DNA of 64,000 nucleotides from Octopus vulgaris (Eukaryota): assembly GCA_951406725.2 (NCBI GenBank), contig OX597814.1, positions 61,380,001-61,444,000 of the forward strand. The letters are read 5' to 3'. Positions 1,861 to 54,833 of this stretch are shown here, one piece after another. The translations under genes and the position numbers were made by a program. The notes beneath the pieces were generated by a model. The model was not told the origin of the DNA and did not search any database. It worked only from the letters and a program-made list of their open reading frames with translations. Numbering within the stretch: the stretch's first letter is position 1; every line of letters begins with the position of its first letter.

Positions 1861-2976
1861 AAGTAAAAGGAAGAGCAATGCTAAGAAAAAACTTCAGTAA
1901 ATAGCAAAGTATGTTTGAAGAGGTTACAGTTACACCATCTTATGTAGTAGCTGCATGGATGATGGAGGGATGAAGCATGATACAGTGTAGGTCAAAAGAA
2001 CCTGAACACTAATGTAGCTCAGTACCACTGGAAGGAACAAAAATGCTAGAAAGTGCCAAAATCATTATGATTTCCAATCAACAGCTGATGAATAGAGAAT
2101 GCTGCAATGCAAACTGTATGTTAGTAAGTTTTGTTTCTAATTTGGGCACAAGGCCAGCACATTTTGAGAGGAGGCTTTTTAGTTGATATTATCGAACTCA
2201 TTACTTGAGTGATATTTTATTTTTACTCAGCTACGGTGTTATATTAGCTATCAATAATGATATTCCCTCTGATTTTTCTGATTTTCAAACCTATTTATCT
2301 AATGTTTATTTATCGACAATGCCGTCCCCAGTCAAATTCCCTCACACCGCTTATTGTCACGTGTCCCTTGACCTCTCTCTCTCTATGTCCCCCCTTCCCA
2401 TAACCATCATCGCCATGGTTCTCTATGCCCCCCCCCCCTTCCCAAAACCATCATCGCCATACATAAAAGAGCGATCGCATTTATCGTTAACCCCACTCGC
2501 TTCAAAATATCTAAAGAATACGCACAGATCATGAATGGCTAAAAGTTAAGTGAATCGTCCAACCTCGCTACGACTACCTTCTTTCTTGCACTTATTCCTA
2601 TTCTTCAATTTCCATCTCATTGTATTGTCCCTCATTCTTTCAGTATTCCCTCATTACCCTGTCTAGCTCAAACATTTTTTTTTTTCGTTTAGACTTGTCT
2701 CCAGGTTCATAGCCACTCTGATTTTTCAATTTTTTGTTTAGTATTGTCTCCCGATTCATACAAACCCATTGCTAGCTCATACGATTAACAGAACCTCTTT
2801 ACTCAGCTACGGTGCACCCGCCCTCCCACCCCCACCACGCATGCCGGAAGTTCCTATTCTCTGCCATTCCGGGGTTGCTTCCCATGAAGACTGCAAATGC
2901 TCTCACCATCCCTACCCCTAGTCTCGACCTATGTAAGGTAATGTTCATACAGTGCAAAATATGAAAGGCTAGCGTT

Positions 2977-4137
2977 ATGCAGGTTGTACTGAAGGCTACT
3001 TTACTACTTCATTTCTTGCACATGAATTCTGCCAAATGCGAGCTTTCTTTTCAGGTACACGAAGCTACTGTCCACCGTCCCAGGGTCTCTAGAGCCCATG
3101 CCTTCCACACCCTCAGGGTTGGCACCCTCAACGTTGGCACTCTGAAAGGTAGGTCTGGTGAGATAGTCGAGATGCTTGAACGGAGATGTGTGGATATATG
3201 TTGCATGCAAGAAATAAGGTGGAGAGGAGGTTCAGCTAGGTTCCTCACAGGCAAGGAACGCAGGTACAAGATTTTCTGGGCAGGGAACACTGACGGGGTT
3301 GGTGGCGTGGGTATACTTATCGCTGAGAAATGGGTAGATAAAGTAATTGAGGTAATCAGAGTATGTGACAGAATACTTAAGATTAGATTAGTGCTTCATC
3401 ATAGTTTAGCAACCATTATATCAGCCTATGCTCCTCAGTCGGGGCTACCCGATGGACAGAAAGACCGATTCTATGACACTCTACTGCAGACTACCTCATT
3501 GACGAACGACAGAGACCTTATCTTTGTGGCTGATGACTTCAATGGTCACGTTGGACGACATGCTGGGGGCTTCCATGGCGTACATGGAGGCTATGGCTAT
3601 GGCTCCCGCAACGAGGAGGGAACCAGGCTGCTGGAGTTCTGCGATGCAAATAATCTTATGATTTGCAACACTAACTTCAGGAAACCTACCAGCCACCTAG
3701 TCACTTACCAATCGGGCCAACATACCAGCCAAATTGACTACATCCTTACAAGGCAAAGGGAGAGATGGCTGCTTATAAATGCCAAAACCTTCCCAGGTGA
3801 AGAATGTACCCCACAACATAGACTGGTAGTTAGTGACTTTAGGATCAGGACTAGGAGGACAACCAGAAGACGACAAATATGGAGAAGAAGGATCTGGAAG
3901 CTTAAAGATCCTGCAAATGGACAGAGATTTAGGGACATATTACTTGAAGCCTCTGACGAAGTAGAAGGGGATAGAGCATCACAGGGGGTAGAAGACAGCT
4001 GGACGTTTCTAAGGGACAACCTGCTGAGAGCCACTGACCAGATCTGTGGCTGGTGCAAAGTCCCCTCTCGACCTAGAATAACGTGGTGGTGGAACAATAT
4101 TGTAGACAGGGCTATTAGAGAAAAGAGACAGGCTTGA
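2977..4137 (+). pseudogene. RTE ORF, APE endonuclease part
   Basis: GTLNV, DICCMQEIRW, GVGILI, SAYAP, DDFNGH (GDFN mutated), QIDYIL, PQHRLV motifs; stop at the deletion junction. Confidence 0.9.
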
Positions 4138-4173
4138 AAGCAACTAATTAGAGAGAGAGTTAGTTTAGATGAG

Positions 4174-5508
4174 ATGCAGTTTGGGTTTGTGCCAGGGAAA
4201 AGTACTACTGATGCTATATTCCTGGTAAGGCAGCTGCAGGAGAAATACCTAGCCAAAGATAAGCCCCTGTACCTGGCTTTTGTTGACATGGAGAAAGCCT
4301 TCGACAGGGTCCCCCGATCCCTTATCTGGTGGGCAATGAGAAAACTAGGGATAGATGAATGGTTAGTGAGAGCTGTGCGGGCCATGTATAGGGACGCCGC
4401 TAGTAGGGTGAGGGTTGGAAATGAGTACAGTGAAGAATTCCGGGTAGAGGTAGGGGTCCACCAAGGCTCAGTACTCAGCCCCCTCCTATTTATCATAGTC
4501 CTCCAGGCAATAACGGAGGAATTCAAGACAGGATGCCCTTGGGAGCTCCTCTATGCTGATGACCTTGCTCTAATTGCTGAGTCGCTATCAGAACTGGAGG
4601 AGAAGTTTCAGGTGTGGAAACAAGGATTAGAATCGAAGGGCCTCAGAGTCAATCTAGCTAAAACCAAAGTCGTAATCAGTAGGAAGGTAGACAAATCACA
4701 AACACCTTCAGGTAGATGGCCCTGCTCGATCTGTAGAAAAGGTGTAGGTAGAAACTCTATAAGATGCACCAAGTGTAAGCTATGGACACATAAGAGATGC
4801 AGCAATGTCAAAGGAAGGCTAACTAGGAAGATGGTTTTTGTATGTGGCAGATGCTCAGGAACAATAAACACTGAAAATGCTCTGAGACCAACTTCCGTCA
4901 CTTTCCAGGGAGAAAAACTAGAAATAGTTGATAGTTTCCGTTACCTAGGTGACCAAGTCAGCAGCGGGGGCGGGTGTGCTGAAAGTGTAACTGCTAGAGT
5001 AAGAATAGCTTGGGCAAAGTTCAGAGAGCTCTTACCTCTGCTGGTGACAAAAGGCCTCTCGCACAGAGTGAAAGGCAGACTGTATGATGCGTGTGTACGA
5101 ACAGCCATGCTACATGGCAGTGAAACATGGGCCGTGACTGCTGAGGATATGCGTAAGCTCGCTAGAAATGAAGCCAGTATGCTCCGATGGATGTGTAATG
5201 CCGGTACTCACACTCGGCAGAGTGTAAGTACCTTGAGAGAAAAGCTGGACCTAAGAAGCATCAGTTGTGGTGTGCAGGAGAGACGTTTGCGCTGGTATGG
5301 TCATGTGGCGAGAATGGATGAAGATAGTTGTGTGAAAAAGTGCCACACCCTAGCGGTTGAGGGAACCTGTGGAAGAGGCAGACCCAGGAAAACCTGGGAC
5401 GAGGTGGTGAAGCACGACCTTCGAACTTTAGGTCTCACTGAGGAAATGACTAGAGACCGAGACCTCTGGAAGTGTGCTGTGCGCGAGAAGACCCGGCAGG
5501 ACAAGTGA
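4174..5508 (+). pseudogene. RTE ORF, reverse transcriptase part with inserted C4HC3 finger
   Basis: QFGF, AFVDMEKAFD, GVHQGSVLSPLLF, LYADD, FRYLG, RLRWYGHV, RGRPRKTW; RT N-terminus missing. Confidence 0.92.
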
Positions 5509-12448: not shown

Positions 12449-12574
12449 ATGGATGCGTCGTCGGAGTGCAACATTAAAGTCATATGCCGTGTCCGACCCC
12501 TCAACGATGCCGAGGAAAGGGCTGGCAGTAAATTCATCCTCAAGTTCCCCACTGATGATTCTATTTCTATCGCC
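12449..12574 (+). CDS. Khc: Kinesin-1 heavy chain exon 1 (aa 1-42)
   Basis: GCCATGG start context; MDASSECNIKVICRVRPLNDAEERAGSKFILKFPTDDSISIA with kinesin RxRP motif; donor GTAAGT at 12575; phase 0. Confidence 0.97.
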
Positions 12575-32699: not shown

Positions 32700-33300
32700 C
32701 AGCATTTCTGTATATGGTTTATATGACTTGCGCACACCATTCATGTATACCTTGTTTTCTTAATCTCTACCCACCAACCAGATTACAATGCATGATACCC
32801 TATCAAAGGCTTTTCCAGATCGACAAACAGTAGGCATAATAGTTTGCTTTTTGCTAAAAACTTCTGTAGTTTTATCATTTGAAAGAAGGTATCGGTGATT
32901 CCTTGTCTTGGGACAGATCTGAGCTGCATATCATGTGGGCCAACTTCTTAACTAGTTGTATTATTACTCTTAGTTGTTTTTTGAAATAACTAAGCTATAA
33001 CTAGATAAACCAAGTTATAACTTGGTCTATCAGTCTTAATATCACTGTAATTGCTTTTTTTGAGAGAATTTTCTTTGCACCTGTAGCAGTTGATGAATGA
33101 TATTGCTATGCTAGTCCTGTACTACCTCTTGACTAAGTAGTGCATTTTCTACTTGGCCAACTATTTTCAACATCTTGACACCTATCCTGATGATCTGTCT
33201 GCTTTCCTTGCTTTCCTAATCTTAATGGTCTTTTTAACCATATAGCTGTCAATTTCAATAGCTGGTCTCCTCTTCACTCACTCTTTCCTAAGTATTCTCC
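32700..33300 (-). mobile_element. Old RTE-like LINE RT fragment
   Basis: Reverse complement aligns loosely to the RT region of the 2222-6077 element (FVDLEKAFD-like segment near 32800-32830). Confidence 0.55.
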
Positions 33301-33602
33301 TCAGCAACTTCTATTAACAGTATTTATATAATTCATTCATCTTAGTGTCAATGATGCTGAGCCCATTGCTGTTTTTACATATATATTCCACTCCCCCATT
33401 CCTTCAACATTTTGATTTATACTGACATACTGCTTTGCAATTGGGAACACCTAATGTTACAGACATTGATATCTCTGATACAAACATTTATATATGCTTT
33501 GAACAGTGGTTACCAGATAGTATACTATAGGGTATAGTTAAGTGCACCATGAAAATATAACTGAAACGCTAAATTCATTTAAATTGTGTGTGTATGTATG
33601 TA

Positions 33603-33636
<34 letters not shown>

Positions 33637-33652
33637 AACACAAATGGTATTT

Positions 33653-33746
33653 AAAATTTACAACAGCTGTTTCAGTAGTATTTTATTTATGCATTTGTAG
33701 AAGATTACATCATAACACATGAGCCACTATCATCAGGTAAAACTTT
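33653..33746 (-). ncRNA. Type-I minimal hammerhead ribozyme motif (antisense to Khc)
   Basis: Minus strand: aaagttttac-CTGATGA-t-agtgg...ctact-GAAA-C-AGCT-G-TT-gtaaatttt; helix I, II and III all formable; palindromic AGCT loop. Confidence 0.65.
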
Positions 33747-33877
33747 ATAGAGGTAAGATTTCAAACAATCAGATTACTTACATTGATTTGGATAAATCCA
33801 ATGTCAGTTGGATCAGTCCTGATTGATGGACTGACATTGGGTTTGTCCAGATCGATGTAAGAAATCTCACCTGTTTA

Positions 33878-33968
33878 AAATTTTATCTGATGATGGTGAA
33901 TAATGTTATGCTGTAATCTTCTATAACTGCATAAATAAAATTCTACTGAAACAGCTGTCGTTACCTTA
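33878..33968 (+). ncRNA. Type-I minimal hammerhead ribozyme motif (sense to Khc), helix I degraded
   Basis: CTGATGA at 33887-33893, GAAACAGCTGTC at 33948-33959, long helix II; poor helix I pairing. Confidence 0.5.
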
Positions 33969-34194
33969 AATACCATTTGTGGTTACTTTTTATACCTATA
34001 CTACATCAAGAAGCGACTCCAGAGTCAGATCTATGGTTTAAATTGGATTTGGGTTAGGGTCAGCAATATCCTACCAACACTCAAGTGTCTTCTGTGTTGT
34101 TTACCTCACTGTGAGCTGTGTTATCATACCTAGCCATTTCTGACATTCTGTGTGTTGGTGTGCTTAGATTCTAATGAATCGTTATAAGTAGATC

Positions 34195-34587
34195 ATATTC
34201 TTTTATTTGTTTCAGTCATTTGACTGCAGCCATGCTGGAGCACTGCCTTCAGTCAAACAAATTGACCTCAAGACTTATTCTTTGTAAGCCTAGTACTTAT
34301 TTGATTGGTCTCTTTTGCCAAACCACTAAGTTACAGGGACATAAACACACTAACATCAGTTATCAAGCAATGGTGGGGGGGGGGCAAACACAGACACATC
34401 AACACACACACACATATATATATATAAAACAAGCTTCTTTCAATTTCTGTTTACCAAATCCACTCGCAAGGCATTGGTTGGCCTGAGGCTATAGTAGACA
34501 CTAGCTCAAGGTGCCACACAGTGGGACTTAATCCGGAACCATATGATTGGTAAGCAAGCTACTTATCACACAGCCACTCCTGCGCCT
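34195..34587 (-). mobile_element. SINE family B copy
   Basis: Ends in CACAGCCACTCCTGCGCC; reverse complement of 36062-36430. Confidence 0.85.
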
Positions 34588-37959: not shown

Positions 37960-39410
37960 ACAGAAAAACAAAACATGAAAACAAGTGTGTAAACAACAAA
38001 CAGATGTATTAGTTTAATGCTTGGGAAGTGAGAAAGTTTTTTCTGTTTCAAGCCTACATTCTTCGACAGAAAATAACACAGAAATAAACAGGGAGAGAAA
38101 ATAGGAAAAGGCTTAGTGGCTAGCAATCTATCATGTCGAATGCCAGACAGAGGGGTCACTCAGGAAAGCTAGGAAGAAGGGGAGATAATAAAGTAGTGGT
38201 GATCCCAAAATTAAGGTGCACGTGCGTGTGGAAGGGGGCTGGTGACATTGACTTGTGCGTGTGTGCATTTGTAGGTATGTGGATGATGGTGTAGGTGCTA
38301 GGAAGTGGTCAGTGCTTGTGTGGGTGCTGGGAAGTAGTCAGTGCTACTGTGTGCAGTGTGGTGTGGAGGAAGCAAGAGTGGGATCTAAGGGATGGGATGT
38401 ATAGGGATGATAGGGTTGGAATATGTAGGGGTGGGGTAACAAGGGAGAAGGTGGGTAGGAGTGAAGAGAGGAAATAGGTGCCAGAGCAAGAGAGGAGAGG
38501 TGGGTGGGAGGAGGAGAGAGAAGGAGGATTAGATGAAGAGGGGAGGAGAGTTGAGCCCATGTGGAACAAAGGAGCGAAGAGAGAAGATTAATCCCTGTTC
38601 ATGCAAAGACGGCAGTCCGGATGGCTCCTGTGCAAGGACAATCCAAATACAGACAGGTGTTGTAAAGAGTGACCGGTAGAGCAGAAATGGTACAAGACCG
38701 GGGTGTCGTTGCTGAGTCAGATGTCTCGGAGGTGTTCCGCAAACTGGTCAGCCAAGCAGTGTCCTGTTTAACCGATGTATAGCAAAGGACAGTCAGAGCA
38801 GGAGATGCATTAGATGACATTGCTAGAAGTGCAGGTGAAGGAGTCAGTGATATGATAGGGTCGATGATGGGTGCCTGTGAGGAGGGTAGTGTTGGAGAAG
38901 TAAGGGCAAGTGCAGTAGCGTGGGTGGGAGCAAGGGAACGAGCTGGGTTGGGAGATTGGGTGAGGGAAGAAGCTGTCGACCAAGAGGTCTCGTAGGTTGT
39001 AGGCTCGTTCGAAGGAGGAGAGGCGTGGTTAGGAAAGACGTGTGAAGTGGAGGGGTTGGACTGGAGTCACTGGAAGGCTCGGAAAATGGTGCATTAGAGA
39101 AGTGGGGTGGTAGGTGAGGGGAAATGGGAGCCGGGTGAGTGGGGAGAGAGCAGATGCACAGTCCACGGAATGTGCTCTGGCAAAGGCGGAGGGGATATCC
39201 ATGTAGGATGAAGTGGCAAGCCATAAGTTGAGACTGATTCCCAAAGTCATGGTTGTCACTGCAGAGCCTGCGTAGACAGAGGAATTGGGAATAGGTGATG
39301 GAGAGCTTGGTGTGTTTAGGGTGGGAGAAAGAGAAATTGAGGTATGAGTGTGAGTCTGTGTTTGTAGTGGATGGAGGGGAGGCGACTGAGGTGTTGGAAA
39401 TAGTGCAGAA
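37960..39410 (-). mobile_element. Penelope-like element (PLE), 5'-truncated and degenerate
   Basis: RT thumb TDSHSYLNFSFSHPKHTKLSITYSQFLCLRRLCS..HGYP, then GIY-YIG remnant FTCTSSNVI*CISCSDCPLLYIG*TG..FAEHLRDI with stops and frameshifts; pyrimidine-rich 3' region. Confidence 0.88.
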
Positions 39411-39673
39411 GTGGAGAACATGTTTGGCATCAATCAAAAAACCAAAGTGAATACAAATTTGGAGAGAGAATCTTGAACGTTCAGGCATGGGTTATAGAGT
39501 TATACTCATTTACTTATTGAAATGTGACAATTGCATAAATGTAAAAAAACCATATTGGTTACAAGGGAACTATATATATTATGTATGTATATATTCACTC
39601 TTATGTCAGTTTTTCCATACAAGCATATATTAGGTGAATATATTATTGAAGCAATGTTTTACCTCTAAATTCT

Positions 39674-41608: not shown

Positions 41609-41696
41609 GGGAAAGTATTTGTATTTGACAAGGTTTTGAAGCCTAATGTATCACAAGAATATGTGTACAATGTTGGTGCTAAGCCCATTGTTGCTG
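41609..41696 (+). CDS. Khc: Kinesin-1 heavy chain exon 2 (aa 43-72)
   Basis: Polypyrimidine-TAG acceptor; GKVFVFDKVLKPNVSQEYVYNVGAKPIVA; donor GTAAGT; 88 nt. Confidence 0.97.
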
Positions 41697-53682: not shown

Positions 53683-54833
53683 ATTCATCATAGTCCTCCA
53701 GGCAATAATAGAGGAATTCAAAACAGGCTGTTGATGACCTTGCTCTTATAGCTAAGTCACTACCAGAACTAGAGAAGAAGTTAACCTAGCAAAAACCAAA
53801 GTCTTAGTAAGTAGGAAGGCAGACAAATCACATATCCCTGCAGGTAGATGGCCCTGCTCGATCTGTAGAAAAGGCGTAGGTAGAAACTCCATAAGATGTA
53901 CTCAGTGTAAGCTATGGACACATATGAGGTGCAGCAATATCAAAGGAAAGTTAACCGGGAAGATAGTTTTGTGTGGCAGATGCACAGGGGCAATAAACAC
54001 TGAAGATGTGCAGAAAACAGTTTCCATCACATGTCACGGGGGAAAAACTAGAAGTAGTTGATTGCTTCCATTACCTAGGTGACCAAGTCAGTCGCAGGGG
54101 TGGATGCCCTGAGCGCATAGCTGCTAGAATAAGAATAGCAGGGTAAAGTTCAGAGAGCTCCTACCCCTGCTGGTAACAAAGGGCCTCTCGCTCAGAATGA
54201 AAGGTAGACTGTATGATGCCTTACTACATGGCAGTGAAACATGGGCTTTGACTGCTGAGGACATGCGTAGGCTTGAAAGAAATGAAGCTATTGTTCTCTG
54301 CTGGATGTGTAATGTCAGTGTGCATGCACGACTGAAAGAAAAGTTGCACATAAGCATTAGATGGAGTGTGCAACACAGACAACTGCACTGGTATAGTCAT
54401 GTGTTGCGTATGGATGATGACAGCTGTGTGAAGAAGTGTGATACCCTAATAGTGGAGGGAACCTGTGGAAAAGGTAAACCCAGGAAGACCTGGGATGAGG
54501 TGATGAAGCACGACCTTCGAATGTTGGGCCTTACAGAGGCAATGACAAGCAACCAAGACCTTTGGAGATATGCTGTTCTTGAGAAAATCTGGCAAGCCAA
54601 GTGAGATCATAGTTGTGGCCGATGCCAGTGCTACCTGACTGGCACCCGTACTGGTGGCATATAAAGAGCATCTACTACACTCTCGAAGTGGTTGGCAATA
54701 GGTAGGGCATCCAGCTGTAGAAACCTTGCCAAATCAGATTGGAGCCTGGTGCAGCCTCCTGGCTTGCCAGTCCTCAATCAAACCATCTAACCCATGCCAG
54801 CATAGAAAGCAGACGTTAAACAATAACGATGAT
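53683..54833 (+). mobile_element. 5'-truncated RTE LINE (same family as 2222-6077) in Khc intron 3
   Basis: Colinear with 4490-6060 including the C4HC3 finger, HGSETW and GKPRKTW, with frameshifts; shared 3' tail. Confidence 0.92.

Follow-up and report, generated by a model that had tools for sequence, protein, structure and literature searches.

The DNA analyzed here, referred to throughout as the window, is a 64-kb stretch of the Octopus vulgaris genome which contains two coding exons of a kinesin-1 heavy chain gene. Coding exon 1 lies at 12449..12574 (+), where all 26 PDB matches are to kinesin heavy chain, kinesin-1 or chimeras thereof, and coding exon 2 at 41609..41696 (+), in frame and with GT/AG borders. 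Intron 1 of this forward-strand gene (12575-41608) holds the foldback structure which is the subject of this work, and its placement in Khc intron 1 by an earlier sequence-only reading is borne out by the two flanking exons. The left end of the structure adjoins a microsatellite of (GT)n followed by (TA)n (33590..33636). No reading frame of 100 aa or more was found over the element, no tRNA was found, and no second copy of its repeat was found within the 64-kb window. A broken, 5'-truncated Penelope-like remnant on the reverse strand (38530-39491, -), with motifs resembling an RT thumb, a cysteine linker and a GIY-YIG-like end spread over two frames, lies 4.5 kb from the foldback; we take it to be Neptune-like. 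A Pfam search of this remnant gave no matches, and it has no extended sequence match to the foldback repeat. Approximately 460 nt downstream of its stop codon there is a second, decayed hammerhead-like motif with a short stem II (~38035-38070, -), which is antisense to kinesin and belongs to a family other than that of the foldback. At 2965-5508 and 53756-54604 (both +) lie frames resembling the endonuclease and reverse transcriptase of a non-LTR retrotransposon, presumably RTE-like, one of them nearly whole and the other a fragment.

The segment 33620-34000 folds into a hairpin with an MFE of -183.9 kcal/mol (z -21.05), a stability that none of 100 shuffles attained, and the ~340-bp imperfect palindrome described earlier is therefore confirmed. 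Among 21 sampled windows of 381 nt, two of which span the foldback, it was the strongest structure, the runner-up reaching -123.9 kcal/mol. The left arm (33639..33816, -) is an inverted, short repeat copy which stops ~22 nt beyond the cleavage triplet of the hammerhead motif described below. It meets the right arm, the mirrored portion of a forward repeat copy (33819..33981, +), at an inversion junction (33812..33823) composed of a near-spacerless palindrome with a 5-bp stem and a 2-nt loop at 33817-33818. When aligned to one another the arms mismatch at 23 of 160 positions and also differ by gaps, one of them of 15 nt; a hand calculation of the Jukes-Cantor distance gives ~0.16, or 0.08 per arm, which indicates that the insertion is old.

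Both arms carry, facing outward from the centre, the core of a minimal type I hammerhead ribozyme. The antisense motif (33653..33745, -) has CUGAUGA at 33736-33730 (C3 at 33736), an extra U at 33729, GAAA from 33673, C-AGCU-G, and a GUU triplet ending at 33662; eight of the nine positions of its helix I are paired, with one U.U, just as had been claimed for it (~8 bp with one U.U mismatch), and its helix II has 5 bp, with A-U at 10.1/11.1 and a 56-nt spacer. The sense motif (33878..33968, +) has CUGAUGA at 33887-33893 (C3 at 33887), an extra U at 33894, GAAA from 33948 (G12), C-AGCU-G, and GUC ending at 33959, with a helix II of 4 bp and a 54-nt spacer. Its helix I is decayed: four substitutions break pairs and there is a 1-nt gap, so that only five of nine positions can pair and only two of these are adjacent to the core; the loss of helix I reported for this copy is thus real, also relative to the letters of the wider family (see below). 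The elements C3-U4-G5-A6-N7-G8-A9, G12-A13-A14, A15.1-U16.1 and H17 are all present in both arms, as are the extra nucleotide between A9 and 10.1 and the palindromic 15.2/16.2 pair with loop 3. The layout given in the sequence-only reading therefore holds for the CUGAUGA and GAAA-C-AGCU-G-UH cores of both arms, but what it called a ~55-nt helix II is a proximal helix of 4-5 bp followed by an interrupted extension and a loop, with a z of -2.6 in the sense and 0.0 in the antisense copy.

Chance was assessed in several ways. A core pattern derived from the element itself matched twice in the window and in none of 100 shuffles. A more general descriptor (at least 4 bp in helix II, a palindromic helix III and up to 80 nt of spacer) finds both motifs in the window when helix I has at least 2 bp, against 0.013 matches per simulated 64-kb window in 150 simulations; with helix I set to at least 5 bp it finds the antisense motif, and no match in 150 simulated 64-kb sequences. 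The expected number of chance motifs is ~2e-5 per 180-nt arm, even if a 2-bp helix I is allowed. Identity of the arms at all 17 positions of the core and helix III has, taken alone, a P of 0.07. Both outward-facing cores are real and beyond chance. The covariance-model search suggested earlier returned no Rfam match at the gathering threshold in the window, nor was any hammerhead family among the 19 matches down to E 10. Scans with the core pattern of viral (0 and 6 matches) and metagenome contigs (17 matches) gave no match with both helices among the 23, which were discarded as chance rather than taken for relatives, and in blastn these public contigs gave no match with E below 0.01; a pair of 21-nt matches stood at E 0.045.

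The distribution of the repeat was addressed by aligning contigs from four of 24 sequencing runs (X1, X8, X9, and X15, whose organism labels are A, C, D, and E), which are DNA-type or unlabelled, to positions 33270-34170 at 80% likeness. This gave 218-404 aligned contigs per run. Depth ratios are expressed relative to the left flank, which shows a single depth level, and were calculated for X1, X8, and X9 only, X15 being without cover of the left flank. In these three runs the summed homologous arm bins over the hammerhead module reach 48-133 times the flank depth, falling to 10-15 times near the centre, while the centre bin itself (33797-33827), like the junction it contains, is single-copy at 0.3-1.2 times. 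Both arms are thus members of a dispersed family of repeats; depth is not copy number, and the ratios are to be read only as an order of magnitude, of a hundred loci or more. Single contigs bridge the centre over 224 nt without differences in X8, over 147 nt with one difference in X9, and over 33648-33967 with 13 differences and six gaps in X15, which means that the insertion is common to those samples. To the right of the mirrored portion the repeat continues on one side only (33982..34170, +), at 6-45 times the flank depth and with coverage still present at the end of the stretch compared. This cover past 33983 makes the forward copy at least 350 nt long, so that 33981, previously taken as the right border of the element, is merely the end of the mirror. 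Contigs run from ~33930 as far as 34052 and join the continuation again at 34119-34121. Beyond it, 34196-34580 belongs to another dispersed repeat, which recurs elsewhere in the window (families D19, I1, I2, and I10) and may conceal the right end of the element.

Among the 21 joints listed for these contigs, nine (four of 15 and five of six) lead from the left arm across to the right side, staying on one strand, at points other than that of our locus. Five of the nine show intervening letters, and at least three clearly continue the family sequence (33755 to 33871, 33761 to 33932, and 33746 to 33975); two are supported by 21-27 letters. The best reading of these nine joints is that they come from further loci, each inverted at a point of its own. 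Taken together, the multi-copy arms, the single-copy centre, the extension of the right copy to at least 34170, and the different inversion points elsewhere identify the structure as a head-to-head insertion and not as a fixed foldback element. The special foldback element of the sequence-only reading is thus replaced by an inversion junction particular to one locus, of a kind already published for Penelope-like elements (PLEs).

The contigs also provide an outline of the family hammerhead. Among the differences listed, the family letters at 33886, 33962, 33964, and 33965 restore the helix I that is missing in the sense arm, the last three of these in 1-4 contigs per run. Position 10.1, again among the differences listed, carries G in 15-26 contigs per run, as against A in the left arm, and either letter pairs with U11.1; one contig has G10.1-C11.1, and the changes at this pair are otherwise one-sided. 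At the free core position N7, 5-8 contigs per run have A among the same listed differences. Within loop II 19-29 contigs per run diverge from the alignment. At 33995-34022, 40-60 nt beyond the cleavage triplet, the family letters contain more A and C than the window copy. The reverse transcriptase of a PLE has been reported to initiate in an AC-rich stem-loop (PMC11167929, in the sections available), of which this stretch may, as only a hint, be reminiscent.

The agreement with the minimal hammerheads (min-HHRs) of PLEs is considerable. In the available text of Cervera and De la Pena (2014; PMC4209133) these are described with type I topology, CUGANGA followed by an extra nucleotide after A9, GAAA-N-palindrome-N-UH and a short AU-rich helix I, they occur dispersed and mostly as single copies, and an AGCU loop is given for D. 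willistoni, the loop found here. The earlier assignment to a minimal PLE-type hammerhead is upheld by two of these features, namely the extra nucleotide after A9 and the palindromic helix III. The same text reports dual min-HHRs on opposite strands 100-700 bp apart (C3 to C3 the present pair is separated by 150 nt) and a PLE that is truncated at its 5' end and bears a further motif on the other strand. The foldback differs from those min-HHRs: its stem II domain measures 54-56 nt, far more than in any of the published examples consulted, and exceeds the published descriptor of a stem of 3-7 bp with a loop 2 of 3-10 nt, and the window copies have G.U or A-U instead of G-C at 10.1-11.1.

The mode of insertion can likewise be compared to that of PLEs. 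In the available parts of Craig et al. (2021; PMC8557442), canonical and Naiad PLEs are shown with a 5'-truncated copy in inverted orientation at their 5' end, with a tail of 30-40 bp on one side only, and with (TA)n targets, the last a preference of Neptune and Naiad elements; the available parts of Frangieh et al. (2024; PMC11167929) describe a PLE protein that cuts and extends both strands and favours AT-rich sites. According to depth and joints the 5' truncation, the inverted copy abutting the 5' end of the forward copy, and a one-sided extension are all present at the foldback, and (TA)n is its neighbor. By analogy the (GT)n/(TA)n tract is likely to have been the insertion target, bearing in mind that the adjacency concerns this single locus and that (TA)n tracts are frequent across the window. 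Unlike the published pseudo-LTR insertions the foldback has no coding sequence, and its extension measures at least 190 nt as against 30-40 nt. None of 12 short family motifs matched the Naiad, Chlamys, and Hydra consensus sequences, octopus Naiads included, in the available supplement of Craig et al. (2021), where breaks every 70 letters may hide some matches; nor did family motifs match the available supplement of an O. vulgaris repeat paper (PMC13282606). An origin from Naiads, of which Naiad_Ovul and Naiad_Esco are (TA)n-targeting and marked HHR_half_core, was rejected on the same zero of 12 motifs, and the 3' end of Naiad_Obim differs by eye.

We consider it probable that the hairpin represents two head-to-head copies of a dispersed hammerhead repeat, likely the decayed non-coding end of a PLE (its pseudo-LTR or a non-autonomous derivative), inserted beside (TA)n and predicted to be inert. 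In the mechanism that we propose, a PLE enzyme with RT and GIY-YIG activities would have nicked AT-rich DNA beside (TA)n and copied RNA from both strands, or else a single cDNA would have folded back, and two 5'-truncated copies would have been joined at the short palindrome. For cleavage the motif of the parent RNA would need either a head-to-tail dimer or the help of protein, and helix I of the sense copy, already silent by geometry, would likely have been lost afterwards through drift. Of the non-autonomous PLE derivative tolerated because of ribozyme silencing that was suggested earlier, the minimal PLE-type hammerhead and the repeat family are retained and the silencing-based tolerance is not. 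The link to PLE reading frames that had been anticipated did not materialize, neither over the element, nor through the neighboring remnant, nor in the published consensus files. The foldback is accordingly filed as a likely PLE derivative and not as a member of any named family, because core, extra nucleotide, and palindrome agree with PLE hammerheads while the size of stem II does not and no parent frame was found.

The prediction of inertness follows from the geometry of the locus. Each strand carries one core, which is transcribed after its own complement, so that the transcript would zip into a ~160-bp duplex and bury the core whichever strand is transcribed. Folding computations assign the core bases in the foldback a probability of being unpaired of 0.001 on both strands, in agreement with the earlier statement that the sense core is sequestered, and put the cost of the hammerhead fold inside the foldback at 85.5 (+) and 75.9 (-) kcal/mol. 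The two motifs are unable to dimerize with one another in one transcript. Even in isolated arms the monomer hammerhead fold is penalized relative to the arm's own ensemble, by 6.6 kcal/mol in the antisense arm and 13.6 kcal/mol in the other, and the isolated antisense arm is no more stable than its shuffles (z 0.39). As far as the available texts go, the single min-HHR tested showed no cleavage as a monomer (PMC4209133), and a PLE hammerhead cleaved only with protein and was dispensable for insertion in vitro (PMC11167929). On the basis of the folding model the foldback copy is probably an inert relic and not a ribozyme that was silenced to protect the gene.

The opposite view, that selection disabled the sense ribozyme to spare kinesin pre-mRNA while preserving the antisense copy or else the duplex (as an ADAR substrate, for instance), was the explanation first put forward for the tolerance of the element in the gene, and it seems to us quite improbable. 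It can draw on the decay of the sense helix I, where four or more changes in 18 positions have a P of 0.036 at the per-arm rate, on the sharing of the locus among the runs of organism labels A, C, D, and E, and on the observation that Xenopus retrozymes are rarer in introns than expected by size (10.64898/2026.07.22.740005, available text). The P for this decay rises to 0.16 at a 12% rate and to 0.25 at the arm-to-arm rate, however, the region was selected post hoc at one locus, and 42-44% of Xenopus retrozyme copies in the same available text are intronic. Moreover the sense core is intact and retains its GUC, and a hand count shows that the arm differences yield G.U pairs about equally on each strand (8 vs 6 of 23). 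With both cores buried on either strand there is little activity for selection to act against, and since sequestration is symmetric (0.001 for the antisense core too) and the decay is borderline with respect to drift, tolerance through silencing is unsupported.

Two alternatives concern the nature of the repeat itself. That it is a non-LTR retrozyme, built of tandem hammerhead units of 170-400 nt with a circular RNA intermediate, and that the locus holds inverted monomer fragments of it, we regard as unlikely. The foldback shares with animal non-LTR retrozymes its type I topology and the absence of coding sequence, its 1-bp helix III with palindromic tetraloop is of the style described for HHR_Amex1 of the axolotl (PMC7229834, available sections), and retrozymes have been argued, in the sections available, to come from PLE pseudo-LTRs (10.64898/2026.07.22.740005). 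Its copies stand head-to-head instead of head-to-tail, though; a head-to-tail tandem unit is absent at the locus and in the window, none of the 21 joints listed runs backward as a tandem junction would, and the forward copy extends for at least 350 nt without internal repetition. As a retrozyme would still be mobilized by a PLE, this alternative differs from the head-to-head PLE insertion that we favour chiefly in the form of the parent. Very improbable, and already largely refuted, is a chance hammerhead-like core in the inverted repeats of a MITE or foldback DNA transposon. Short, palindromic, and non-coding, the structure does resemble such a transposon, its palindrome being near-perfect, MITE-sized, and adjacent to TA dinucleotides. 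Against this, the centre is unique to the locus (single-copy in X1, X8, and X9), the inversion points differ among loci, one side of the repeat far exceeds its mirror, and a chance motif is expected at the ~2e-5 per 180-nt arm given above, with both helices in 0 of 23 pattern matches in public contigs.

Hammerheads are not new to cephalopods, 235 Rfam hammerhead-1 loci being annotated in the giant squid (PMC6962438, sections available), and hammerhead stem length is in general naturally variable (PMC3088659, sections available). The arrangement of minimal hammerheads on opposite strands is already known; the new feature is the ~55-nt arm. In the openly accessible literature covered, we encountered neither this family nor any PLE-type hammerhead whose stem II domain reaches 55 nt. 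A tentative and somewhat doubtful extension would be that the family hammerhead works, that its ~55-nt bulged stem II, unseen by Rfam and by descriptors, makes it the first worked-out representative of a hidden class of retroelement hammerheads with long arms, and that the long arm docks the element's protein. Such a class might possibly include the "half-core" cases of Craig et al. (2021; PMC8557442), in which, in the available part of that article, core halves lie 35-50 nt apart in Naiads that are said to lack ribozymes. Should a hammerhead whose stem II domain has 55 nt prove to cleave, retroelement ribozymes would be undercounted by current searches, and the claim that some PLE clades lack ribozymes would need re-testing. 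The near-spacerless inversion junctions at variable points offer material on how PLEs complete their integration.

Some smaller features of the hairpin should be recorded. Its central stem (33781-33857, +) is fully paired by way of four U.G pairs and has a size like that of a pre-miRNA. The top Rfam match by E-value, mir-95, reaches 32.6 bits against a gathering threshold of 67.5, reflects this central hairpin only, and was rejected. Given its length, the duplex of ~160 bp within the kinesin intron may plausibly serve as a substrate for ADAR editing. Editing of the RNA intermediate by ADAR had been considered because all four differences in the central stem are A/G and was rejected; at 33793, the sole one of these positions with family data, the family letter is G, so that the left arm is the changed one, which fits ordinary deamination.
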